64,000 nucleotides of DNA from Rhizaria sp. SCN 62-66 (lineage: Eukaryota): assembly GCA_001724265.1 (NCBI GenBank), contig MEDY01000043.1, positions 1 to 64,000 of the forward strand. The letters are read 5' to 3'. The notes under the pieces are model-generated. The model ran no database searches. It saw only the letters and a list, made by a program, of their open reading frames with translations, and was not told where the DNA came from. A program made the translations under genes and the position numbers. Below are positions 1 through 57,137 of the stretch, piece after piece. Position 1 is the first letter of the stretch. The number at the start of each line of letters is the position of its first letter.

Positions 1-1331
1 ACGCCGCAACTGCAGCCGCGGCGCACGCGGCACACAAAACGCACTCCGCATAGCTCCACTGCTCCGAGCACAACAGCGGCAGACGCAGACGTGAGGGACG
101 CGAGGGGGACATCTGCCTCGCAGGTTACCTCGCGCGGGGCCACGGCGGCGGCTGCGTCCGCGAACGTCGCCCCGAAGGCGGCGCGCGCAGCGGCCCAGTC
201 CGTACCGGCAAGCGCGGGCAGTCGGCCATCCCCAGCGCCGCCGCTGTTCCTGCCGTCGCCGCCGCCGTCGCAGTCGCCGTTGTCGGCGCTGTCGCCGGCG
301 CAGCCGCGGGTTCGCGGTGCGCGTGTGAGCAGCCGGCCGAGCCGCGCGACGCTCAGCGCGTCCTTGAACTCGTCAACCGCGCCGAGCGTCGCGTTCGCGT
401 TCGCAATCGCGGTGCGCTCGCGCGCTGCGCTCTGCGTGAGGAACGTCTTGAGCAGCTCGAGCTGCGCAGCGTACGGCGCGACTGCGAGCTCGTTGAAGGA
501 CGCAGTGCGGGTCTGCAGCTAAGCGAGCGACACTTCAGCGCGCTTGCGCAGCGCGGTCGTAAGCGCGGTCTCCTCCTCGAGCTGCTGCGTCAGCGTGGCG
601 ATGCGCGGGGTGAGCGTGGCAGCGTGGGTGCGGAGCTCGGTGTGTGTGTTTGTCGGCGATGGTGCGGCAGTTGTGGCCGCGGTGCTCGCCGTTGAGGACG
701 ACGCAGTGGCCGCAGAAGACGGCTTCGCACGTCTCGCACCAGTACATCATGGGGACGGGCTCGCCGTGTTTGTGGCAGGTCTGCGCGCGCGCGCGTGGGA
801 AGAAAGCAGTGAGAAGACAACGTGTCGCAAACGAGTGTAGCTGTGAGAGTTATCATTGGAACGTGCTCAGAGATGATGCGTCATGTCTAAGATTCGAAAC
901 AACGATGATGCAATATTTAGCACTAAAATAAAGCATGGAAAATAGTTCAAGGACGTACGCTCAGGGTGTGCAATGAGGACGCTGTCACGGCGGGTGCGGC
1001 AAGTGTGGCACTTTCTGAAGACTCTGACGATGATGCAGTGGCTGCGGGACTGGCTAAGCCTTGCAGCTCGCTCTCTGACTGTGTTGGAAAAGCGGGATGG
1101 GTGGAGGGATCGCAAACACAATGGTGTCGCTTGGTGTTGTGAATGTCTGTCAAGTGACTGGCAGTGTGGAGATGCGAGTTCGATGAAACGGGGGAGAGAA
1201 GGTTTTGGGTTGTGCAAAGAAATATCAACACGTACCTGCAAACATGCCTCACAGATGCGCGCGGGACGCTGTCCTGCAAGGGTGCGGATAATCTTACCGC
1301 ATAGCGCACAGCTGGATACTGCGCTCGCCAT
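1..1331 (-). CDS. B-box zinc finger + coiled-coil protein (TRIM37-like architecture), 3' end outside window; contains one frameshift and one in-frame TAG
   Basis: Exons 1331-1236, 1078-959 and 780-<1, with GTACGT..AG introns. The B-box reads CHKHGEPVPMMYWCETCEAVFCGHCVVLNGEHRGHNC. After a frame slip in the (GT)n run at 640-649 the frame reads TELRTHAATLTPRIATLTQQLEEETALTTALRKRAEVSLA[TAG]LQTRTASFNELAV..., coiled-coil like and open to the window edge. The start exon is uncertain. Confidence 0.7.
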
Positions 1332-5581: not shown

Positions 5582-8433
5582 TTAAAGGTCCTATTGTTCC
5601 TCCTCCCGATTGAGAGTCATAAGCCGGAACCCAGCGAGCGTCGCCACGAGCCTGTTGGCGAGCACTCGACTGCGCTTGGCCACGCCCGCGCCGTCGGCGG
5701 CCAGCACGACGCGCAGGGCCGGGTGGATGCTGCTCGCCACAGCGGTCTTCGTGGCGGTGTCATAGGCCGTGGAACCGAAAAACACAGTCACCGTTTCTGC
5801 GAAGTAGGCAGCCAGAACTTGTTGTGGCGAGTCGGCTTCGGCCTTGAGCAGCGCCAGTACTTGGCCGCCGCCGCACAGCAGCGCCGGGACGTCTTTGTGT
5901 TCGACGGCGAGAAGCTGCCGCAGCACCCAATAGAGCGCGGCGACGAGGTCCAGCTCGCCGGCGTCGACCGCGGCCGCGACGTCCGCCTCAGAGCGCGGCA
6001 GCAGCTTCTGCAGCAGCGCCACCACGACCGCGACGTCGGCCTCTTTGAGCGCGCCGCGCTGTCGCGGCAGGAGCAGGCCCAGGAAGGACAGCGCGTGCAG
6101 CAGCGCCCCGCCGTCGGCCGCCGTGGCCACAACGCGCAGTGCCAGCGCGGCGGCCCCGGCCGCGCCGGGCGCCGAGGCCAGGTCGTCGCGCGCGGCCTCT
6201 GCGGCGGCCCACGGCATGCCCGCCGCGCCCGGGTCAAGCTGCCCCAGCGTCTGCAGCAGCAAGTATACGAACACGCGGTGCGCGCGCGCTGCGGCGGCGT
6301 TCACGGCGCCGTCCGCGGCGGGCGCGGGCGGCTTGTGCGCGAGCGCGAGCAGCGCGGGCAGCGCGGCCACCAAGGGCTTGCTGGCGAAGCAGCCCGTGGG
6401 GCGCGTGTGGTCGCCCCGCGCGGCCGTGCGGTGCGTGCTCATCGCAGCACCGGCGCTGCGGCCGCTGGCGCTCTGGCCGCGCAGCGCGGCGCGGCGCTCG
6501 GCCACGCGCAGCGCGTTGAAGCGCAGCAGCACGGCCGCGGCAACGGCGTGCGGCCACGCGCGCGGGGCCGCGCCGGGCGGCCGCTCACGCAGCCCAGGGC
6601 GCCGCCGGCAAAGCCTCCGCCGGCGAAGGCTCCGCTGGCAAAGCCGCGGCCGGAGTGCGCGAGGAAGGCGGCGCAGAAGGCGTCGCAACTGCACCACAGC
6701 AGCGCGTCGTCCGGGTGCGGAAACAGCGGCGCCGCTGCGGCCACTGGCGCACCCTTGCTTTTCCTCCCGTCAGCGGCGCCGGCTGCGGCTGCGGCCGTGG
6801 CTGCAACTGGGACCGTGAGCGGGCGGTGCGGCAGCGGGGCGAGGCGCGCGAGCCCCGCCATTGCGGCGGGCCGCGGGACGCCGACGCGGACGTCGGCCCG
6901 CTCTGAGGGCGGGCCGCCAAAGGGGTCGAAAGGCTGTGCTGACGCGCCGGCGGGGACAGCGCGCTCGAGGCGGCTGGCGCGCGGCCGCGGCGTGCGCGGG
7001 ATGACGGGCCCGCTCGTCACGCCCAGTCCGAGCCCAAGCCCCGTGCCGAGGCCCAGGCCACCTTGCTGCTGCTGCTGGGGCGGCAGTGGCGGCGGCGGCG
7101 GACTGCCAAAGCCGCCCCATCGGGGGGGCGGACTGTTGAGGGCCATGGCGGGCGTCACGGCCTGCCCCGCGCTGCGGAACTTGGCGTGGGAAGCCAGACG
7201 GACTGCAGCGCGGGCAGCGCCCCAGCCGCGGCAGCCGCCGCCGTTACCGTCGTCGTCGAACTCGTCGTCGCTCAGGACCCTCTGCTGCACGACGTCCGCG
7301 CTGTCGTCGGGCGCTGCGCCGTCCGCGCCCGCGCTCTCGTCCGCGCCAACCGCGGCCGCGGCGTCTGGTGTGACGGCGACCGCGGCGGCAGCAGCGGGCG
7401 TGAGCAGGTAGCGCGCGTCGTCGCCGGTCATGAGCGCGTCGGCCAGCTGCGAGAGGCGTGTGAACACAAAGCCCGCGGCCGGCCGCGACAGCGCAAACCG
7501 CGGGGACACTTGGCCACTGCTGCAGGAGCCGACGTCCAGAGCTGCGGTGTCCAGAGCGGCGGCGTCCAGAGCGGCGGCGTCCAGAGCGGCGGTGTTCAGA
7601 GACGTGGCTGAGGCGACTGTCGGCAACGTGCGAGAAAGACCAGGGACAACGGGTGCGCTAATGGGGGCAACTGGGCCGTGGTTGTCGCCGAAGGAAAAAC
7701 CAGCTTTGAGCGCACTCGCGGTCGCGTTAGCGGCTGCGTCAGAGGGGGCAGCGAAGCTGGTGCGGGGGACGAAGCTGAAGCCCGTCGCGGTAATCGAACT
7801 CGTGGGACCCATGCGGCTGAACGCATTGTTGATGTCGACGCGTCCGTCTTTGCGCGCTGCGGCGCCAGTGCCAGTGCCAGCGGAAGCAGCGAAAGCGGCA
7901 GCAGTCGAGCTTGTTGATAATCGCGTGTCGTGGTCGTCGCAAACGAGGGCGGCGTCGCGCTCCTAAACCGTGATGCCCAGGGAGGCCGCGGCGGAGCTAG
8001 CCACTGTCGCCGCGGGCACCTGTCTGGCCGGGTGCGCGGTGAAGCGCGCGAGGTAGGCGCTGAGGGGCTTGACTGCGCGGAAGAGCTGCCGGTGCACGGT
8101 GAGGACGAGGCGGAAGCGCGAGAGCTGAAACAGCGCCTCGGCCGCGGCCACGCGCGTCAGGTCGTCGGCGCTCTCGAGGAGCGGGAGTACGGTCGCGGCC
8201 ACGTCGTGCGCGGCGAAGAAGCCGCTGATGGCCTCGTCGAGCGCCGCCGCAGCCGCGCTGGAGACAGGGCGACCGTCGCGCGCAGTGGTGTCGAGGCTAG
8301 CGCGGTGCCGGCCTAGCTTGCGCAGCGCGGCGGGCAAGAGGTTGATCTTGGCAAAAGCAGTAGTGCCGCCATCTCCACTGGTCGCCGCGAGCGCAGACAC
8401 CGCCGCCTCCAGGTCCAGCAAACACTTCGTCAT
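5582..8433 (-). CDS. Uncharacterised ~950-aa protein with ARM/HEAT-like helical N- and C-terminal parts and a low-complexity middle
   Basis: ORFs 7963-8433 and 6439-7812 share a frame and are separated only by TAG (7963-7965). A 1-nt frame slip near 6575-6585 joins ORF 5591-6697, which reads ..REEEQ[TAG]DL[TAA], with TAA at 5582-5584. Confidence 0.6.
7534..7601. repeat. 15-bp coding tandem repeat, ~4 copies, encoding (T/A)AALD
   Basis: GTCCAGAGC(G/T)GCGG(C/T) units; the minus-strand translation is TAALDAAALDAAALDTAALD. Confidence 0.85.
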
Positions 8434-10185
8434 GTGAAAAGTGGCAGCAACCTGCTTGAGGGCACACAGGGATCAGGAAACGAAGTAAGGAAGAAAAACT
8501 CGAAAACATCGTAAAACAGCCAAACATTTCGATAAAGCACCACCCAGCGCACATGTTTCTTCTTGATTCCTTTCTCTCCTCTCTTCCACACAATCTGCAT
8601 GACGCCAAACGTGATTCAGTACAACAGGGTTGCAGACCAAAGAGCATTGGGTTTCTCAACCAAGGTTGTGCGAGCTAGGGACATTATTTAGAAGATATAA
8701 TAACAGACTCCCAGGGTATACGTTGATTCAGCCATGATATTATTGGTAGAGATGGGATGTATGAGTGTACACGTCAAAAACGACTTGATTTTGAGACACC
8801 ACGCTGCCTGTGATCGAGCTTGATGTGGTTGGAATAGGCCCACAAAAAGAAAATATCGGAAATACCGTAGTTACTTTGTGTCCATGTACATTTATAATAA
8901 GTATTACACATTTGTTACTAGTTTGAACGAGAAAGACAGTATACTATGAATATAAATAGTGGCATATGCTAAGTGTTACATATTTGATACGAGATTTAGC
9001 TTTGCACGGGAGTGTCCAGGCAGTCATAAGAATGACCCACCTGAGCGAGGGCTCTTATTGCATTTGTCAAAACAAAAGGGAGTAATCCTTTTAGTTTAAG
9101 GTATGAACCTGGACATTTGTTTGGTTATATCTGCTCAACTCACGTGAGATGAGCACCGCCAGCTTGTTGCTGGTGTTTCAATCAATCCAAATATTAAAAG
9201 CCGTTGCGATTTGGCGAAACAGAACATTGGTGGAACTCAAACTGATGCTGCCGCTCTTATTGCTGTTGCTGTTGCTACCGTTGCCCGGATCATGCATCTA
9301 TGCGAGAGCGAATGCCACCGCGGTGTGGGCGCTCGCGGGCGCTCACATCACAGGTTGTTACTAGTACTGTTCACATAGGCCGAGGTGTAGGCGTTGAGCT
9401 CCAGCGCCGCCGCAGAGAGCGACGATCGTATCATGTCTCACGGTAATACAGACCATGATAGCGGGAGAGAGAGTGCCTGTGCAGTGATTTTGATGAAGCT
9501 TTCGTTCTGGTTAAAATGCTTTTCATGCTGATGTTCGAGTGATTAGATGCATTCATGACGTATACACGCGACAATAAGAAGCTATCGCCCATTGATGCAA
9601 CGCTGTTCTATTAGCTATGAGCCAGTCCTACGTTGATGCAGAGTGGCAACGTTCAATACTAACCTTTTGCCGCGTTGTGCCGCGCAAAACGATGAAACTC
9701 AAACGACGCGTGCTACTACATATGCATGGTTTCAACATCATAGATCCTCACGCCTAAAATATTTAACTTGCCCACCACTTGAAAACTCAGACCACATACA
9801 ACATGTCAACATTTTATCTCTTAAACCATTTGCTGTGACCATGGGAGTGGCTGTAACGGCTCGGGAAAGCGCAAGACGATGGTTGCTGCTGCGTCGCGCA
9901 GAGCGACGTCATTCGGGTGGCCGAGGAGGCCTAACATTGCGGAACATACACGAGTCACCACATCTAACAACAAGAATTTAGCCAGCTAAACCCGTGAGAA
10001 AACTAGCTGATTGATGTGAGTTATGATTTCGTCGTCCGCCAATTTTCTTTTTTATTTGGCTAAACGGCAGCGACGCCAGAACACTTCCTCAACATAGCAA
10101 CCGCATCCTGATTTCTGCCCTCGGCCCCTCCAAACTCCTTACTCCCACTGTTTTCACACATCTTAACACGTTTCTCCTGATTCAG

Positions 10186-16691: not shown

Positions 16692-19094
16692 ATGCATACC
16701 GCGCGGTGCTGGCCGTCACTCTTGCCGTGCATGGTTACACTTGCGTTTGCGTGCTTGTTGCTGCTCGCGGTGCTCTCCCCCGTCTGCGGCGCCGTGGTGA
16801 ACGCCGTAACGGGTCCGCGCGTGAGCGAGTCCTTGCGCGTGGCGCCCTCGCCGCTGAGCCTGGAGGACGACATGGCGCACCTGGCCTGGGTCTCGCTCAT
16901 CGGCGTCGTGCTCATGGCCTTTGTGCTGCTTTTTGCGTACATGCTGCGCAAGACTAAGGCGCGCTGGCTGCCCGACTCTTCCGTCGCGATCATCGCCGGC
17001 ACTGTCATCGGGCTCGTCGTGTACCTCTTTGACCCGGCGCTGGTGACGCCCTCGGACGGCTCGCCCTCGGTCTTCGCCTTCTCGCCGCGCATGTTCTTCT
17101 TCGTCTTCCTCCCGCCCATCATCCTCGACGCTGGCTACTCGCTGAACAAACGTTACTTCTTCTCCAACATCAGCACCGTGCTGCTGTACGCGGGGCCCGG
17201 CGTGGTAATCTCGACCTGCGTCGTGGGACTCGCCGCGCTCGCCGCCTCGCACGTCGGCGTCTTCGGCGGGACCCCGTTCGGGCTGCTTGAGTCGCTTATG
17301 TTTGGCTCGCTGCTCTCGGTCACCGACTCCGTGGCCACCATCTCCATCCTGGGCTCGCCCGACCTGGACTTCGACTCGTCGCTCTACTCGGTCGTCTTCG
17401 GCGAGTCCGTCTTCAACGACGCCGTCGGCATCCTCGTCTTCGACACGCTCGCCAAGTACTCGCGCGCCAACGCGCTTGCGTTTGACTTCCCCTCGCTGTC
17501 GGTGTCGCTGCTTGTCGTCTTCGCGGGCTCCATCCTGCTGGGCATCGCCGTCGGCTTCCTGGCGTCGTTCGTGTTCAAGAACCTCGACCTGCACGACTAC
17601 CCACACTTCGAGTTCCTGCTTATCTGCCTCTTTGCCTACACGGCCTACACGCTCGCGCTCGTGATGCAGCTCTCTGGCGTTATGTCGCTTTTCGTGTGCG
17701 GCGTCGTGCTCGGACACTACAATTGGCACAACATCTCCACGCCGTCCAAGACCTCCACTAAGTTCGGTTTCAAAGCCTTCTCCGTGGCCTGCGAGATGGC
17801 CGTGTTTGTGTACCTGGGCATCACGTTTACTTTTTCGCTGACGCCGCACTTCCACTTCCGCTGGTCGCTGCCGGGCTGCATCGTGGCCTTCATCCTCGTG
17901 TGGCTGGGCCGCGCCTCGTTCGTCTTCCCTATGTCCTGGCTCGCAAACACCTTCGTGCGCGCGCAGCCGTTGACGTGGCCCATGCAGGTCATCATCTTCG
18001 TGTCGGGGCTGCGCGGCGCCGTGTCGTTCGCGCTTGCGCTCAATATCCATGGCGAGCACTTCGACGTCATGATCACCACCACGCTCGCCATCGTCATCAT
18101 CACGTCCCTCGTTTGCGGTTCCTTCACCGACCGCATCATCCGCCACTACAGCGCGCAGATTAAGGCCGCGCGTGCCGCCGCCGCCGCCATTGCCGCGGGC
18201 GCCGACGCGGGCTTGGGTGCGACCGCGATCGCGATGAGCGCCGTCTCGGGAGCATCGTCGGGAGCCACCTCGCAGCAGCAGCAGCAGCAGCTCAAGGGTA
18301 TCTCGCGCGGCGGCGCGCGCGGCCCGGGCCTGGCGCTGGGGCTTGACCTGACTGACGCGCCGGGCAAGGGCGACGGCGTCCGCCGCAGTGAGAGCTGCCG
18401 TAGCGCTCCTGGCTCCGGCTCTGGCTCTGGCGCTGGCTCCAGCTCCGGCTCTGGCTCTGGGTTGCGCAAGCCGTTGGCGCCGCGCCGTACGAACAACGGC
18501 CAGGCTCATCTGCAGAGCGGCACGATGCGCAACGCGGTCCACGGCAACGGGCGCAGCAGCGGCGACGACTACGACTGCTACGACGACGATGACGACGACA
18601 GAGTTGCAGGAGATGACGACGATGTTGACCTCGACATCGATGTCGAGCTGGACCTTGAGTCCCCGCCACCGCGCCGCGTTTCACAGCGCGGGGGCTTGCG
18701 GCGCGGTGGGGGCAAGCGCGGCGTCGCGGGGGCTGGTGCGTCCGGTCCCGCGGCGCCGGCTGGTATCGCGACGGCGGTCGTGCGCGTCGCGCACGACGCC
18801 GACGCCGACGCCGACGCCGACGACGGCGAGGGCGACGCGGCGGCCGAGTCGGCGCGCGTGGCGCACCTGGCGCGCATCCTGCACGGCGACGCACCCGCGG
18901 GCGACGCGGCCGGCGGCGATCACGACGGCGAGGTTGACAGCATCGGCGCCGGCGACGGCGACAGCAACGGCGAGGGCGAGGGCGACGACGGCGCGGCCGA
19001 GGGCGGCCTGCAGTGGAAAAACTTCGCCTCGTGGGGAGCATTCGAGCGCGCTGTGCTGCAGGAGTATTTCGGCGGCCCTGCATCTGCCGATTGA
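16692..19094 (+). CDS. Na+/H+ exchanger, CPA1 family (NHE8/NHX-like), with an acidic low-complexity C-tail
   Basis: Motifs FFFVFLPPIILDAGYSL, TDSVA, VFGESVFNDAVGI, SGLRGAVSFALAL; multiple TM segments; ends TGA. Confidence 0.93.
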   Translation: MHTARCWPSLLPCMVTLAFACLLLLAVLSPVCGAVVNAVTGPRVSESLRVAPSPLSLEDDMAHLAWVSLIGVVLMAFVLLFAYMLRKTKARWLPDSSVAIIAGTVIGLVVYLFDPALVTPSDGSPSVFAFSPRMFFFVFLPPIILDAGYSLNKRYFFSNISTVLLYAGPGVVISTCVVGLAALAASHVGVFGGTPFGLLESLMFGSLLSVTDSVATISILGSPDLDFDSSLYSVVFGESVFNDAVGILVFDTLAKYSRANALAFDFPSLSVSLLVVFAGSILLGIAVGFLASFVFKNLDLHDYPHFEFLLICLFAYTAYTLALVMQLSGVMSLFVCGVVLGHYNWHNISTPSKTSTKFGFKAFSVACEMAVFVYLGITFTFSLTPHFHFRWSLPGCIVAFILVWLGRASFVFPMSWLANTFVRAQPLTWPMQVIIFVSGLRGAVSFALALNIHGEHFDVMITTTLAIVIITSLVCGSFTDRIIRHYSAQIKAARAAAAAIAAGADAGLGATAIAMSAVSGASSGATSQQQQQQLKGISRGGARGPGLALGLDLTDAPGKGDGVRRSESCRSAPGSGSGSGAGSSSGSGSGLRKPLAPRRTNNGQAHLQSGTMRNAVHGNGRSSGDDYDCYDDDDDDRVAGDDDDVDLDIDVELDLESPPPRRVSQRGGLRRGGGKRGVAGAGASGPAAPAGIATAVVRVAHDADADADADDGEGDAAAESARVAHLARILHGDAPAGDAAGGDHDGEVDSIGAGDGDSNGEGEGDDGAAEGGLQWKNFASWGAFERAVLQEYFGGPASAD

Positions 19095-20695: not shown

Positions 20696-21246
20696 GCTTA
20701 GGTAGTACATGTGAGTTTACATACCTTGTGTTGTGTTAAAGAACTATAGTGTGATATGTTAGTCTGTTAGCTGTGTTTCTGAGCTTTCTGTAAGCAGCTG
20801 TTACGCGCTGATACAACCCGCGTTATCAGATGCAAAACAACGCAACTGACTTGAAGTTGAGTTTTTATAACAATTTACAAGTACAATAAATAACATACTG
20901 TGAAGTCAGCTCAAGCAATGCTTGGACTCATCTGGTTGCACTGCTAAAAGATCTTGACAGGCAAGACCTAGCGAAGAAACCAACAATTGCTTGTGGCGAG
21001 GGAATCGAAAGTTGGTGCTTCAATAGAGGCGGTCTCAACAGATGTGTTCATCGTTAATGCCGATGATGATTGAATTTATAGATTTCATACGTACGCTTAA
21101 TTTTTTGTAATTCTTGTTTTGTCATGAAATAGTATTTACACCACACAGTCTTTGAATTTAGCTTGCCCAGTCCAGACACATCCAACTGTTGTTTCGGTCC
21201 AACTTTCCCGGCATCTCTACCGCGTCGCGGCTCGCTCTTTTGCCGG

Positions 21247-23325
21247 ATGAGCTCGTCTCAGCGGAACACGTCTGCGGTTGCCCGGCGTAATCAGCGCTTT
21301 GCAGCACATGCTGAGCTTGCGGCCGTTCCTGAGCCTGCGTCGGCGGCGACGGACGCGCAGACTCCTTTCTTCAATACAGGTCCTATCGTGGGCACGTGCA
21401 CCGTGATGTGCGATCCTCGCGAGGCGAAAGACCGTGAGGAGTCGCGCGACCTCTCTGTGTTTGAGCGCATTCCCGGTACGGGCTCGTCTGAGCACGGTAA
21501 CACACCCCTCGTGGACTACGATCTGGCCGTGAAGAAGTTCAAACGCCCCGCGGCAGGCAAGAGTATTGACCCGTCGACAGTGCGCACGCCCGAGACGCTG
21601 ACACGCGTCGTAAACTACCTCGTTTTTTCCGTGCTGGACCGCACCGAGGTTGACTTCCGCGAGGTTTTCCTGTTTCTCTCTGACCGCTTCCGCGCTGTGC
21701 GCGGCGACTTTTCGTGCCAGGGCATCAAGACCGTTGCGCACGTGTCGGCGCTGGAGACGATCGTGCGCTTCCACCTCTACTCGATGCACGCGCTGCTGGA
21801 CGTGCCCGACGTTGCGGCGACGCAGAACATTACCGAAGGCACCAAGGCGCTGACCTCACTACTGGAGCTTTACGACGACGGCGTCCCGTCACCGCACGAG
21901 GATGAGTTCCGCGCCTACAACCTGCTTTTTTCCGTGCAAAAGAAGCGCGGCCACGAGCAGCACACCATGGCGCCCATCGCCGTGCTCGCCAAGCTCTCCG
22001 CGCGCTCGCTCGAGTCCCCGCTGGTGGAGTCGGCGCTGGGAGCGCTGACCGCGATCCACGCCAACGACTGGGCACGGTTCTTCAAGTCCGAGCTGCCTTG
22101 CCTGCCCTTTCTGCAGGCCTGCGCCGTGCTGCCGTCGCTGCCCGTGCTGCGCAAGTGCGCCGTCGCGTCCATCGCCTTCGCCGTGCGCAGCGACTACTCG
22201 CTGCCGCAGCTCGCCACCACGCTGCTGCTCTCGGTGCCCGACGCGGCCGCGCTGTGTCAGAGCCTCGGCCACGGCGTCCGCTTTGCACCCTCGAACCTGC
22301 CACCCGACGCCGACGTCGACGCCGCGCGCGACGCCTGCGCCGGCGACTGCTCCGCCTGGTACTTTATACGCACCAAAACGGACGACGACTGGGGCGTCGC
22401 CGCGCCGCCGCCGCGCCGTCTGTTCGCGCTCGACGCGCTCTGCATCGGCCTCTCGCGCGCCGACATCGTTGCGCCCGGCGGCGCGGCCGACATGTAGCGG
22501 CCCGATGCGCATGCTCCTCTGTTTCCGCCGTCGCAGCGCGCTCTGCCGCCGCCACCCCACCAGCAGCAGCCGCTGCACGCCCATGCTCCCATGGCTGCGG
22601 CCCGTCCCGCACCTGCTGCGGCAGCGACGGCCGCACCCGAAGCGGCGGCGTTGGCCCTCTCTGCACCTGCGCCCGTGCCTGCAGCGCAGGTGCGCGCGTC
22701 CGCCCCAAGCGCCGCTGCTGTGGACGCCGGCGCAGCCGCGCTGAGCGGACTGGGCAGCGGCACCTTTGTGCCCGTGGCCGCCGCGGCGCCCGCCGACGCC
22801 GACGCCGCCCTGGGGGCGCGCCGCATCATGAAGGTCCGCGGCGCCGCCGGTGCGCCGCCCACCGCGCCTGCCGCGACAATATACCCATCCCCCGCTGCTG
22901 CGGCCGCTGCGGCGTTGGCGCTCACGGCGGGCGTCCCCGTTGCGTCCGCGAAGCCGGCGCCTGCCGCTGCGTCGGCCTCCGCGAGCTCAGGAGCCCGCGC
23001 GGCTGTCGCCGCTCAGCCTGCGACCGAGGCCGAGCATGCGGCCGCGATCGCCGATGCCGAGGCGGTTCAGCGCAAGGCCGCGCTGCTCAAACAGCAGCTG
23101 CGCGAGCGTCTGGCCGCGCAGATCCAGAGCCAGAGTCAGCACCAAGGCCAAAACCAAAGCCAAAGCCAGGCCGTCTCTTCAGCGGCCACTGCGTCCGCCG
23201 CAGCCCCGGCGGGCTTTGCGGCGGACTTTGCGCTATCAGCTACAGCGGAGACGCTGGCAGGCCGCCGTGTCATCATCACGACGTCGCGCGCCGCCAACGC
23301 CGCTGCCGCTGCCGCTGCCGCTGCC

Positions 23326-26300: not shown

Positions 26301-26817
26301 CTCGCCACAGGCGCGCAAGCGGCACCGCGATGTCGGCCGCAGCGCGGCGCGCCTGGCCGGCCTTGTCCTTGAGGTCGGCGAACGCGCTTTCGCCAGCCCG
26401 CCCGCGCGCGTCGCGGGGCTCACCACCACTGCCGCCGCGCGTGTCGGCGCGGAGATGCCCGTTCCCGGTCTCGCCAGTGCGGCCGAGGCCGACTGTGAGA
26501 AGGCGCCCGCGTCGCCAGAGGGGCTCTCGCCCGAGCCCTCGGTTAAGCGCGGGCGCGGCGCGGCGACGCCGCTGCGGGTCGGTGTGCTTGCCGCCACGCC
26601 TCGTCTCACCGTTGGACCTGCATTCGCTGCGTCTGCGTCCGCGTCCGCGTCTGCCTCTGCGGACGCTTGTGGCGCGTCGCTGTCGGCGCGGTTGGACGCG
26701 GCGGCGGCGCTGCTGGCGACTGAGTGGGCGCGCACGCAGGACCTGGCTGAGTCGCTCGAAGACGTTGATCTGCCTGCGCCCACGCTCGCGCTCGACCTCA
26801 GCGAGTACGGCTGGTGA
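21247..26817 (+). CDS. SAC3/GANP family mRNA export factor, ~1,856 aa, read through an in-frame TAG at 22495-22497
   Basis: SAC3/GANP core motifs GTCTVMC..E..RE, AVKKFKRPAAG, VRTPETL, FLSDRFRAVRGDF..Q, EFRAYNLL. The frame continues past TAG directly into ORF 22591-26817, which has a coiled coil and an Arg/Trp helix, and ends TGA. Confidence 0.85.
23297..23372 (+). repeat. GCY trinucleotide run encoding a poly-Ala tract in SAC3/GANP
   Basis: gccgctgccgct... followed by (gct)n. Confidence 0.9.
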
Positions 26818-52463: not shown

Positions 52464-55400
52464 TCAATAAAGCGTTATGTGCCGTGTCATCGCTTTGATG
52501 CGGGCGTGGATGCCTGACAGCAATTCGAGTCGATCCATCGATGCATCTGTGGGGTCGAACGCCACCTCCGTCGTCGAGAATGGACGGTGTACGAGGAGGT
52601 ACTTGGGCGGCATCACGGCACCAGGAGCGAGCAGCTCCTTCTCTGCCTTGGCAACAGCGGCGGCAACTGTAGATGATTCATGTACTCGCATGCGGTTGCT
52701 GCTGATAACAAACGTCTTTACGCCTGATGCTTGCGCAGATCCGGGGTTAAGCGCGAACGCCTCTTCCTCGGCCAGCACGCCCATCTCATCACTGGCGCGC
52801 AGAGAGACCATGCCGCGACCGCGGATCCAGCCCTGTTGCAGTCCGTCTGACGAAAGCACTGCAACAGGCGAGGTGGAGATCGACACCACGTCGCGGATCA
52901 TTGCCATGCGCTGCGCGTCGTTGGCGCCAATCAGCAGCGGTGGCATCACGTTGCTCGCCATCGACATCAGAGGGAAAAATCGCATCACGGTGCTGTAGAA
53001 CAAGTCTTTCACAAGCGGATTCGCTCCCGACACTCCGTCGCGCCGCTTAAACACACTGATCTCCTTGCGCGCCGCCTCCCACGTCTCGGAAAGAACTTGG
53101 CTCACGTCCTGGTGCTGTGCGCAAAACAGCAGCGTCTGAACCATGGGTGAGTGAATCGGGCTCAGCCGCGCCGAGCGCTGCGCCGAGCGCATCGCCAGCT
53201 CGTCCGCGAGCGCTTCCTGGAAGTTGCGCAGCACACGGCACATGTGCGTGGGAACGACGACGTCGACGGGCAGCGTCTGCACGAGCTCCGCGACGCGCGA
53301 GCCTGCCTTGAGCTTCTCCAACGGCGTCACCTGCACCACAAGCGCGGGCGCGCGCTGGTCATTGCCCTTGGCAGAGCGCAGTGCTGAGGGCGGGAAGGCC
53401 TCCTCGGCGAGGAACGTGCCCGCGTGCAGCGGTAGTGTGACCTTGCGCGCGCCCAGGTCCGACGTGTCAAGCAGGTCATTGAGCGAGATGTCGAGCTGCG
53501 CCCATCCGAGGCTCAGCTCTGTCACGCCCGGCAGCCCGCCCACGGCGGCCGCGCCGGAGGGCGGGGCGCCGAGGCTCGCGGGGGCCAGCGCCTGCCGCGG
53601 GTCATTAGCCATGACCGTGAGCTCGAAGATGAGCGACGTGTTGCTGCGGTCTGTTTTGATGAGCATCTGGCTCCAGTCGTCATTGTCATTCCCGCCGGGC
53701 GCCGAGGCGGCGTCGGGGAACAGCCACTTGGACTGGTCTTTCTTGGTGTTGCAGGCACCCTTGGCGATGTGGAGGTTCGACACTGGCATCCGCTTATCAA
53801 ACAGGCAGCAGCGCACGCGGTAGCCCACCGCCAGCGCCGTCGCAGCCGTATCCAGCGCGGGCATGTTGACCGCGCTGAGCAGCGAGACCTCAACCGCGGC
53901 GCTGGGGTCCTTGGCGCCCCACACACCGAGCTCGTCGCCCTGTAGACTCGCGGCCGGCGCGCTCGACAGCCACTTGTCGGCCACGCTCTGCAGCCCAGAG
54001 GCCACGGTCACCGCACCGCCAGTCACAATCTCGGCCGCCGCGCCGGAGCCGGCTCCGTTGCCAGTGCTGGTGAGTGACGAGGCTGCGGAGACGTCGCCCT
54101 TGAGCAGCGTGCCCGTCGCTGCCCACAGCGCGACTTCGTCCACAACGGCGGGACCGCAGGGCAAGCCCTTGGGCAGCGCCGCGGCGCCGTGCGCGCCGCG
54201 CTGCGAGCGCACGGGGTCGAGCACGGCCGCGCCGGCGCCCAGCGCGGTGGGCGGCGCGTGCCGCGTGAGGTCGAGCGGGACCGGGACAAGCGCGCCCGTC
54301 GCCGGGTCTGTGCGCAAGTGGCGGAAGCCGAGCCCCGTGTGGTCGAGCACGGGCACCAGGCGCGACGCGAGCGAGAAACGCGGCGACGCGTCGAGCACGG
54401 CCAGCAGTGGCACACGCGCGTGGCTGGGCACGGCGGCGAAGAGCTCCAGCGCGGCGAGTGGCGGCGCCAGACGCGCGCGCACAAGCTTGTGCAGCAGCAG
54501 AGTCGCGCAATGCAGCGCTGCGGGCGCGCCCGCGGCCAGCGGCTTAGAGGCGAGTAGTGCCCAGAGCTGCGTGAACTCACCGGGCGACACGGCGCCGTCG
54601 TCGTTGACGTCAGCGAGCGCGGTCAACAGCGCCAGGTCCGTGGCAGTGAAGACGCAGCGCGGCGCGGGCACGGTCACCGTCACCACAGGCACGCGCGCCG
54701 AGGCGCCCGGGAAGAGCGTGGCGGGCAGCGGGGCCGTCGTGGCCGCGGTCGCGGAGCGGAACAGCAGCTGGCTCACCGCGTCGTCGCTGAGGGACGAGTC
54801 GAGAGCAGTCGCCGACGCAGTCGAGGGGTGGCCATACGCGGCGCCGGCGGAGGCTGCAGCGGAGGACGAGGAGGACGATGACGGTGCGGCGCCAATCCAG
54901 ACGTCGTGCATGGAGGTCTCCGGTGGGAGATCGTGCACATACGCGTCGCCGCAAAGCGTCTGCACACCGAGCGCGAACTCTGCCGCGTCCAGCTCGCCGT
55001 CTCCATTGGTGTCGCACGCGCGGAAGAAGGTGCTGAGCCCGGCCGCGTCGGCGCCCTCGGCCGCATGCGCCGCGAACAGCAGCCGGTACAGCGCGGCGAA
55101 GAGCGGGAACGGGACGACGCTCAGCGGCAGCCCCTTGCCGCCCGCGGCCGCGGCCGAGACGCCCAGTCCGCGCGCGGCCCACGCCCGGCTCGACGCGCCC
55201 CCGGGCTACGACGCCGCGACCGCCGCCGGCCCCCTAGTGACCGCGACGGCAGGGGTGGCGTGGTGGGCCGCGAGGGCGTCTGCAGTGACTGGCAGCAGCG
55301 CGCCGGACGCAAGGAGAAAGTCCGTCCCCGACTGCGGCATCGCGAGCCCCAGCGCGGCCATGGCGCGGCGCACGTCGGGCACGAGCAGCCCGCCGAACTG

Positions 55401-55850
55401 CGCGCGGCCGAACGCAGCCGTGCACAGCGCGTACGCCTGCGACAGGAACGCAAGCTCTTCCGCGATCAGCCGCGGCAGCGCGCGGGCCAGCGCAGGCGGC
55501 AGCGACGCGCGCTCGCGGAGGTACGCGCTCTCGGCCGCGCACGACGGCGCTACGGCCACCGCGCCGCTTGCAGAGTTCGCGGAGTTAAGAGAGGGTTCAG
55601 CGCGGAAATTTGCGTAGTAGCTGCGCAGCTGTGCCAAGTGCGCGTGTTGCGGCGTCAGCTCGCAGTAACGGCCCTGTAGTCGCTGCTCGAGGGTCTGCAA
55701 ATCGCTCGGCAGCGTCGGCTTCTGCTGAAGCTGAGGCTGCGGCTGATACGGTTGCTGAAGCGAATACTGCTGTTGCTGTTGCTGTGGCTGGGGTGCGGCG
55801 TACTGCGCCTGGGGAGGAAACGAGATGCCGCGGCTCTCCGCATACCCATC

Positions 55851-55887
<37 letters not shown>

Positions 55888-57137
55888 TGCTTTGGGGGGA
55901 TGGCAGCAAGTCCTGCGCGCAGCTCCGCCTCCGCTGCGGTGTAATCTACACGCCCGTTGCCGTCGACAGAGACGAGATGCGAGAGCGCGGCGAGCAGCGC
56001 GGGCGTCACGGCCCCCGCAGCCGCGGCGCCGCCGGCCTCGTGCGTGATGACGACGGAGAGCGCTCGCAACCGCGCCGAAACCTGCTCGTGTAGCGTAAGG
56101 AAAACGCGTGCGAAAAGGTAAAACGCGTCCGGGGAAAGTCCGCGCGCAAGCGCAGCCGCCGCGCCCGCCGCGCCGCCCGCTGGGGGCGCGCCCGCGACGT
56201 CCATGTCGAAGGTGAGGCGGTAGAGGCGCGCGAGGAACACTTCGCTGTAGGGGTAGCCGAGCGTGCGGACGAGCGCGACGAGCTCCGGCAACGAGAGGTG
56301 GCCGTCGGCGTCGGCATCGAAGCGTGCAAACGACTGCCGCAGCCGCCACGCCTCGGACGGCGAGAACGCGTGCAGCTCGCCGGCGCCAGGGCCCGCGCTT
56401 TCAACAGCAGCGCCAGCAGCACCAGTGTCGGTATTCGCGGGAGCGGCAGGGGTGGCATCGGCGGCGGCGGCGGGCTGGAAAGCAGTGTTCATGGGTGAAA
56501 ACGCGGTAAACCCATGTGCTGGCGCATTGGAGGACAAAGCCGTCGCGCCATGACCGTTCTGAGGTGCCGCGTTGCTGTACGGGGCAGCGTTGTTGTTGTA
56601 AGCGTTGACTGCTGGAGCGGCGGCGGTGGGGCCTGCGTAGGTGGCGACCGCCAAGGCCGTAGTAACGGGCGCCTGCACGGGGTCGAAGTGGAGGTAACTG
56701 CCGGGCGGGACCGCAGCCGCGCTGCCGCTGTTCGCGGCCACAGCAGCCTGATCCGCATGTGGGGCCGGAGAAGCCGAGGCGGGCGGCGGGGCCAGGTGCG
56801 CGTGGAACGAGGGCGCGACGGGCGAGCCGGGGCCTCCGACGGGCGGCAGCGCCGGTGCCGCGGCCTGTGTGCTGGCGGGCTGCGCGGCGGAGTTTGCGGT
56901 TGCTGCTGCAGGAGGGTAGAATGGACTGTTATAGAAGGGTGCGATGTTGCTGGCATCCACGGGGCGCGATAGCGTGGTGGGAGGCAGGCCGGACTCGCTC
57001 GCATAAGACGGCTGCAAGTAAGCGTACGTAGGCGCGTATTCGTACCCTGCAAGAGGCTGTGGTCCGGGGTAGTTGTGTGGAGCTTGGACTTGTGGAGTCA
57101 GCGCCTTCTGCGAGCCGCTACCGCCATGAAACGACAT
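52464..57137 (-). CDS. NPHP1: EF-hand + nephrocystin-1 homology domain protein, ~1,557 aa, read through an in-frame TAG at 55206-55208
   Basis: EF-hand loops DADADGHLSLPE, DTNGDGELDAAE and DVNDDGAVSPGE. The C-terminal motifs RVRCCLFD..VSNLH, KWLF, LIFEL, ELSLGW, LHAGT and HRPF match the NPHP1 C-terminal domain as I recall it. ORFs 55206-57137 and 52464-54965 are in the same frame; ends TGA. Confidence 0.78.
55852..55890 (-). repeat. CAG repeat encoding poly-Gln (13 residues)
   Basis: (tgc)n on the + strand inside the NPHP1-like gene. Confidence 0.9.

Follow-up and report, generated by a model that had tools for sequence, protein, structure and literature searches.

The 64,000-nucleotide stretch of contig MEDY01000043.1 from Rhizaria sp. 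SCN 62-66 (hereafter the window, numbered along its forward strand) carries on its minus strand a gene related to that of nephrocystin-1 (NPHP1), a protein that is found at the ciliary transition zone and binds NPHP4, and the long reading frame of this gene is interrupted by one TAG codon. The window holds several reproducible in-frame TAGs. The genes that contain them are otherwise intact and conserved, and the TAGs are located where these genes are variable or poorly conserved. Our leading explanation, to which we give a little less than an even chance on the strength of the sequences, is that UAG terminates translation leakily or ambiguously in this organism and that full-length proteins would be made.

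A TAG codon interrupts an NPHP1-like gene

The NPHP1-like gene occupies nucleotides 57137 to 52464 of the minus strand as one frame of 1557 codons, wherein the single interruption is a TAG at 55206–55208 (CTA on the plus strand; codon 644). A previous reading of this DNA from its letters alone (the sequence-only reading) had placed one TAG here, and the sequence confirms a single stop. The part preceding the TAG comprises 643 codons (55209–57137, with its ATG at 57137–57135) and encodes a low-complexity N terminus, an EF-hand that scores below threshold, a poly-Q tract, and a conserved helix-loop-helix region. Behind the TAG lie 80 codons (54966–55205) that lack an ATG, as had also been claimed; no methionine is encoded from 55205 to 54966. 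Position 54965, which had been taken as the next called open reading frame (ORF) start, begins a GTG (Val) codon rather than an ATG. The first ATG past the TAG is codon 743 (54909–54911), which is the start of a database gene call of 815 amino acids (P0003). The real end of the gene is a TGA at 52464–52466, and the 90 bases that follow have a G+C content of 0.30.

The assignment to NPHP1 made in the sequence-only reading is upheld by the region spanning codons 836 to 1421 (52875–54632). When the family profile (A1) was compared by hhalign with a nephrocystin-1 profile (A4), this region aligned over 424 columns with a probability of 99.94 and an E value of 8.6e-37, where A4, composed of three proteins named nephrocystin-1 or nephrocystin-1-like (Oscarella, Ciona, and Bulinus) and three protist or fungal hits, was itself assembled from matches of the same NPHP1-like query. 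Searches by phmmer reached named nephrocystin-1-like proteins with E values of 2.8e-7, 1.9e-6, and 1.2e-5 (library of 1.84 billion). The other named matches are EF-hand proteins of Spongospora and Nonionella. These rhizarians have the closest named counterparts of the NPHP1 domain, which does not suffice to place the organism. The animal form of NPHP1 has a coiled coil and an SH3 domain at its N terminus. No SH3 family was found by Pfam in either part of the gene at E values up to 1, nor was a metazoan-type nephrocystin-1 N terminus. NPHP1 is described in the cited portion of the work of Zhang and Aravind (PMC3495828) as carrying SH3 in some eukaryotic clades and EF-hands in others. Because of the C-terminal homology, the lack of a detected SH3 domain, and this described variant, we take the gene to be the EF-hand form of NPHP1, as judged by sequence. 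It resembles nephrocystin-1 in its C-terminal NPHP1 homology domain, and it resembles the EF-hand variant, as far as that portion of PMC3495828 describes it, in having N-terminal EF-hands in place of SH3. Unlike nephrocystin-1, it has long low-complexity inserts, a TAG-interrupted frame, and no SH3 or metazoan-type N terminus recognized by Pfam.

EF-hands on both sides of the TAG

A canonical EF-hand, the motif in which two helices enclose a 12-residue Ca-binding loop, is encoded past the TAG by codons 704 to 726 (54960–55028; FFRACDTNGDGELDAAEFALGV), as the sequence-only reading had proposed. In the profile search of the read-through protein that had been suggested there, this EF-hand exceeds the curated Pfam cut-offs with both EF-hand_5 (28.1 bits; cut-off 25.9) and EF-hand_1 (26.7 bits; cut-off 25.4). 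Its residues D709, N711, D713, G714, E720, and F721 are invariant in all five aligned sequences. The further claim that EF-hands lie on both sides of the TAG holds by sequence, in that residues 265 to 294 (56256–56345) form an EF-hand with the loop DADADGHLSLPE that is aligned in the relatives P0002, P0004, and P0005. This upstream copy falls under the Pfam cut-offs, with 21.2 bits for EF-hand_6 (cut-off 25) and 20.4 bits for EF-hand_1 (cut-off 25.4).

An AlphaFold model was computed for codons 527 to 760 with four relatives as the alignment and with the TAG read as Q. The model has modest confidence overall (mean pLDDT 56.6, pTM 0.44), with helices of pLDDT 70 to 85 on both sides of a disordered linker (model residues 87–144, pLDDT of about 32), and the TAG corresponds to residue 118 within this linker. 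When 48,161 solved chains were searched with the model, the 50 best matches listed were all EF-hand proteins (centrin, troponin C, calmodulin, S100, and others). These chains align over model residues of about 31 to 165, on both sides of the linker, with Z scores of 7.7 to 5.4, although such scores are common for helical models. The model thus weakly suggests one EF-hand-like lobe that straddles the TAG, in which case a stop at this codon would leave the predicted lobe incomplete.

The frame behind the TAG has the properties of coding DNA

An open frame alone is little evidence here, because the region has a G+C content of 72% and the opposite strand contains an ORF of 584 amino acids across the same site. 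We therefore consider a codon log-odds score whose training set was six further genes in the window, with 10,834 codons in all. The NPHP1-like gene scores 0.244 before the TAG, 0.344 in the 80 codons after it, and 0.319 in the rest of the gene, where the mean for coding windows is 0.31. The value for the 80 codons is reached by no 80-codon wrong-frame window of comparably G+C-rich genes, and the same-frame scores behind three true stops range from −0.39 to −0.16.

Uninterrupted relatives give a second view of the site. A homology search of 1.84 billion representatives returned 30 matches at E values up to 0.001, including P0003 and four long relatives. The four (P0002, P0004, P0005, and P0007) all run across the TAG site without interruption, and P0002 (1349 amino acids) is 63% identical to the NPHP1-like frame over 1099 residues. 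Similarity to P0002 restarts at the first codon past the TAG, where PGGASSRAWAARGL is matched by PGGGS--WGARAL (pattern PGG.S..W.AR.L). The orthologue residue at the TAG column, which the sequence-only reading had named as a check, is G in P0002 and S in P0007, and P0004 and P0005 lack the whole linker; the check thus gave an answer for two relatives and revealed no conserved residue. That reading had also named an intron removing the TAG as a finding that would overturn it. Such an intron is not borne out, in that both flanks of the TAG can be aligned with relatives that have no interruption, and codon bias persists in frame. Tiny introns that end at the AG of the TAG or start at GTAG were also considered and set aside, because the candidate stretches encode residues that the relatives conserve.

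The sequence-only reading had concluded that the domain behind the TAG can be made only by decoding this codon. The logic is sound and no fitting intron is found, and the argument is strengthened because at least two more genes have the same anatomy, as described below. Decoding of the TAG is presumed here, and the use of TAG at two ordinary gene ends, together with two changes of frame in the window, keeps genuine truncating lesions in play.

A search of 5.8 billion clusters, limited to proteins of 856 to 2725 residues, gave no full-length form free of the TAG. The exact 643-residue upstream ORF, both pieces of the SAC3/GANP gene introduced below, and one variant with a shorter start were absent from the protein collection. 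A scan of metagenomes yielded a single distant relative (L001), with an NPHP1-like gene of 33% identity and a G+C content of about 52%; its four long ORFs contain no in-frame TAG. A gene neighboring the one in L001 is closed by TAG TAG (9422–9427). Scans of genome contigs and of viral contigs found no relative.

The NPHP1-like TAG is present in the DNA

The NPHP1-like stretch is present, with an identity of about 99.9%, in bioreactor and wastewater metagenome runs dated between 2015 and 2025. A separately assembled contig of 1120 bases from the runs X2 and X3 covers 54760–55840, including the TAG, with zero differences over 1081 bases. These two runs have identical record lengths and depths and are probably one data set filed twice, and X1 is a possible source of the window itself. 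The gene call P0003, with its start behind the TAG, occurs on six contigs (Logan and ENA), and P0034, on another ENA contig, differs from it by two residues and is likewise 815 amino acids long. Thus, the NPHP1-like TAG is real DNA. The X4 contig starts at 55216, and the TAG at 55206–55208 lies outside its cover. Assembled contigs in general drop minority variants. In one X8 record with a depth of 2.4, contacts at 54203 and 56159 are separated by 28 unrelated letters, and this record was taken to represent repeats or other organisms.

The strains that were sampled differ slightly. In X4 and X8 (2025, from another study), single-base differences from the window occur at 54154, 55434, 56130, and 56591. 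The first changes a residue and the last most likely does, and those at 55434 and 56130 are at third positions, as judged from codon position. The contigs of X2 and X3 break in the CAG (poly-Q) tract of the NPHP1-like gene (55841–55896), where the X4 and X8 contigs have a 15-base gap that suggests a strain difference of five codons in length.

Other genes of the window also carry in-frame TAGs

A second in-frame TAG is located at 22495–22497 of the plus strand in a SAC3/GANP gene, where it is codon 455 of the stop-to-stop frame from 21133. This gene extends from an ATG at 21244 to a TGA at 26815–26817 and matches the Pfam family SAC3_GANP with an E value of 9.9e-58. The relative P0036 (1835 amino acids) is a continuous protein that aligns at 54% over 377 residues up to and through the TAG, with G at this column, and aligns again far past it at 70% over 47 residues. 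Conservation with P0036 extends up to the TAG (IVAP.G..D). Because conservation starts directly after the NPHP1 TAG and reaches the SAC3 TAG, neither codon appears to lie in an intron that is removed. There is no A+T-rich spacer at the SAC3 TAG, and the real intergenic regions fall to 36 to 46% G+C.

A third in-frame TAG (7963–7965, minus strand) is found in an unnamed gene that extends from an ATG at 8433 to a TAG at 5591–5593, with a change of frame near 6580. Two proteins, P0039 and P0041 (732 amino acids, from a sister organism), share the MTK start and show no break over their whole length, and both lack the insert of about 150 residues that carries the TAG. In its C-terminal part, the unnamed gene shares 86.7% identity with the sister organism across 203 residues. 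A piece of 156 amino acids that ends exactly at this TAG (P0040) occurs on six contigs (Logan and ENA). Directly after the TAG the codon score is 0.223, a value that 2.2% of wrong-frame windows reach. The frame is therefore coding-like past the TAG in two of the three genes tested, and this in-frame signature, which serves as a criterion for read-through, is present in the NPHP1-like and the unnamed gene.

A fourth, candidate TAG (519–521, minus strand) came from a scan of all 3480 stop triplets, in which a triplet had to be flanked on either side by 60 codons that are free of stops and score positively. Five triplets passed: the TAGs at 55206, 7963, and 519, and a TAG at 17384 and a TAA at 520 that are weak and antisense. 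No in-frame TGA passed. The candidate falls within the coiled coil encoded by a B-box gene on the left margin of the window, with scores of 0.29 upstream and 0.48 downstream.

Stop-codon statistics single out the same codon. Treating TAG as sense joins more coding ORFs in the 64 kb, whereas treating TGA or TAA as sense joins none. An in-frame continuation follows three of five coding ORFs closed by TAG versus zero of eight closed by TAA or TGA (Fisher p 0.035). From ORF lengths, we estimate that in-frame TAGs occur about three to four times per roughly 16,000 coding codons. The ten gene ends examined consist of five TAA, three TGA, and two TAG codons. TAA thus leads among the terminators in genes whose third codon positions are nevertheless about 65 to 93% G+C.

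Gene organization and frame changes in the window

Genes alternate between both strands, an arrangement that speaks against a trypanosomatid origin. A single uninterrupted ORF of 6807 codons extends from 31262 to 51682 of the plus strand, and its last 1893 residues include TIG, ephrin-receptor-like, and TNFR-like repeats and a weak ion-channel-like membrane region. Several Pfam families are matched over nearly their full length inside single ORFs (Na_H_Exchanger, 3–372 of 375; SAC3_GANP, 1–284 of 289; Abhydrolase_2, 15–214 of 217). The 6807-codon ORF and these near-complete profiles within single ORFs indicate that the genome is intron-poor.

The frame change near 6580 (about 6560–6610, minus strand) can be compared with P0038, a protein of 751 amino acids from another assembly that keeps the frame and has 14 extra residues, which match the sister organism. 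The window thus carries a deletion there that is not a multiple of three, either because the strains differ or because the assembly collapsed a G+C-rich repeat. The gene at the left edge (6–849, minus strand) encodes a B-box zinc finger (Pfam E value 7.9e-8), changes frame at a (CA)5 repeat near 650, and continues as a coiled coil. It has no in-frame ATG upstream of the B-box, and its 5′ end may involve an intron or another frame change.

Discussion

We tentatively favor the view that the host, an uncultured, G+C-rich, and intron-poor eukaryote of wastewater and bioreactor metagenomes, does not use UAG as a strict terminator. Within long genes, a few in-frame UAGs located where the sequence is variable or poorly conserved would be passed by the ribosome, and UAA and UGA would remain normal stops. 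A suppressor or near-cognate tRNA might be responsible, as might a weakened recognition of UAG by eRF1. The NPHP1-like product would then be one protein of 1557 residues, with EF-hands followed by the NPHP1 C2 and helical domain. We infer the translation of the TAG, and likewise the mechanism and the inserted residue. A related proposal is that the lineage is at an early, ambiguous stage of stop-codon reassignment, wherein internal UAG would encode an amino acid about once in 4,000 codons, only in unconstrained linkers, while UAG still ends some genes and UAA and UGA are strict; we regard this as possible but doubtful. An established reassignment would be marked by many in-frame UAGs and by UAGs at conserved columns, by the absence of UAG from gene ends, and by a cognate tRNA(CUA) and an altered eRF1. 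The window has three supported cases and one candidate, eRF1 is not among its genes, and UAG is not absent from its gene ends.

Several observations weigh against leaky or ambiguous UAG. TAG also closes two apparent true gene ends, at 5591 and 27286, and the G+C content immediately past them drops to 0.50 and 0.32, respectively; a TAA three codons past the former and a TGA eleven codons past the latter are back-up stops compatible with a short extension. The 6807-codon ORF contains zero TAG, and no tRNA gene is present in the 64-kb window, wherein no match to an Rfam family was found either. The TAGs share no context (TAG CCC, TAG CGG, and TAG GAG), and the 120 bases on their 3′ side fold no better than shuffles (z of +0.90, +0.64, and +1.20). 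None is at a conserved column, with G and S aligned in NPHP1 and G aligned in SAC3 in a weak alignment, and therefore the encoded residue cannot be inferred from the relatives. Past the SAC3 TAG, the 31 codons before the next ATG score −0.13, which indicates no bias, and only then does the score rise to 0.294. The poly(A) metatranscriptome X8 has contigs on both halves of the NPHP1-like gene and leaves 54581–55758 uncovered. Two frame changes, near 6580 and near 650, are both in TAG-carrying genes, and lesions or assembly differences of other kinds thus occur in these genes. In G+C-rich coding DNA, a C-to-T change in CAG makes TAG the likeliest nonsense codon, a point of reasoning rather than computation. 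Because CAG-to-TAG is the easiest nonsense change in such genes, the finding that the interruptions are only TAG is weaker evidence than it appears. Lastly, the three to four TAGs in roughly 16,000 codons are far below the density in the rhizarian exLh, for which the cited portion of PMC5304391 gives 384 UAG in 71 genes.

The most serious competing account has, in our view, a real but clearly lesser likelihood. The TAGs would be genuine premature stops, as in loss-of-function or hypomorphic alleles that arose for example by CAG-to-TAG changes, in a genome that is lesion-rich, heterozygous or polyploid, or relaxed. The downstream parts would be untranslated, or would be made from another allele that is absent from the assemblies. 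This account fits the two frame changes, both at repeats and both in TAG-carrying genes, one of which has an intact form in another assembly (P0038, with its 14 extra residues). It also fits the two ordinary gene ends at TAG, the position of all the TAGs at sites of high variability or poor conservation, which hide a recent mutation best, and the loss of minority variants from contigs. Set against it is the number of lesions, since three to four nonsense changes in about 13 genes are very many for a free-living organism that recurs with an identity of about 99.9% in runs dated between 2015 and 2025. Frame, codon bias, and high protein conservation persist in all the downstream parts, which comprise 914, 1440, and about 790 codons. 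In addition, gene calls on six contigs and the two-residue variant are consistent with the same stops, and the length-restricted search of 5.8 billion clusters gave no TAG-free full-length form.

The remaining accounts are each improbable to differing degrees. If the TAGs were true stops between split genes, the downstream parts would be separate genes, and the one from the ATG at 54911 would encode an 815-residue C2 and helical protein without an EF-hand. An ATG does follow each TAG, at 98 (NPHP1), 31 (SAC3), and 50 (unnamed gene) codons, and gene callers have produced exactly such calls (P0003 and P0038). We nevertheless find this account unlikely, because no A+T-rich spacer of the real intergenic type separates the parts, the ATG-less stretches of 80 and 50 codons are codon-biased and conserved, the ATG-less NPHP1 stretch holds the sole EF-hand above the Pfam cut-offs, and three separate cases of internal initiation or of an internal promoter would have to be assumed in a eukaryote. 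RNA editing that converts UAG to UGG or CAG would account for interruptions that are all TAG, and the cited portions of PMC5496914 and PMC11156358 offer a fungal precedent. That system prefers hairpin loops, whereas the 120 bases downstream of each TAG, the one side for which a fold was computed, behave like shuffles, and the host is a flagellate-type eukaryote with an NPHP1 gene rather than an ascomycete; we hold editing to be quite unlikely. An intron that contains the TAG and is spliced out is very improbable. GT and AG dinucleotides are frequent in the sequence, and the left-edge gene, with no in-frame ATG before its B-box, permits rare introns in the genome. Yet relatives can be aligned to the residues directly beside the TAGs, the two flanks share one frame, frame-specific codon bias runs across the sites, and the genome is intron-poor. 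Moreover, no canonical, long-sided joint spans the TAG; the listed joints that would skip it are in DNA runs, with sides of 20 to 27 letters. Sequencing or assembly error likewise has very little probability. The depth is only about 6 and an indel near 6580 separates the window from another assembly, but the separately assembled contig from another run shows no difference from the window across the 1081 bases that surround the TAG, exact TAG-bounded gene products are found on six contigs from two sources, and the same error would be needed three to four times, always yielding TAG.

Metagenome gene callers split these genes into pieces of 815, 751, and 156 amino acids, and read-through of the TAGs would mean that the lineage has a mis-annotated proteome. 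To our knowledge, the well-described eukaryotic stop-codon reassignments are end states with many reassigned codons. Leaky or ambiguous UAG, if true, would provide a living example of the harmful intermediate through which a lineage passes in reassignment. If the TAGs are true lesions, they are an ordinary set of broken alleles.

Comparison with known systems

The premature-stop-correcting A-to-I editing of Fusarium and Neurospora, which changes UAG to UGG according to the cited portions of PMC5496914 and PMC11156358, also acts where otherwise intact genes with a single in-frame TAG still need a full-length product. The present genes differ in lineage, and a hairpin context is unsupported on the 120 bases that were folded.

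Nuclear codes in which UAG is sense are described in the cited portion of PMC5304391 for Iotanema spirale (UAG is Gln) and for exLh (UAG is Leu). As in these codes, UAG is the only stop found in frame here, UAA and UGA serve as terminators, and UAA closes more genes than any other stop in all, to the extent that this portion of PMC5304391 covers the matter. Unlike these codes, the window has its TAGs at no conserved column and has TAG at two of ten gene ends.

Stop codons whose meaning depends on context are described for Condylostoma magnum and, in the case of UAA, for Blastocrithidia (the cited portions of PMC5304391 and PMC12153298). As those portions present them, these organisms are A+T-rich, with very many in-frame stops and with two or three stop codons involved, whereas the window is G+C-rich and only UAG, a rare codon, is concerned. 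The likeness would be in the principle, wherein the same codon would be sense within genes and stop at gene ends.

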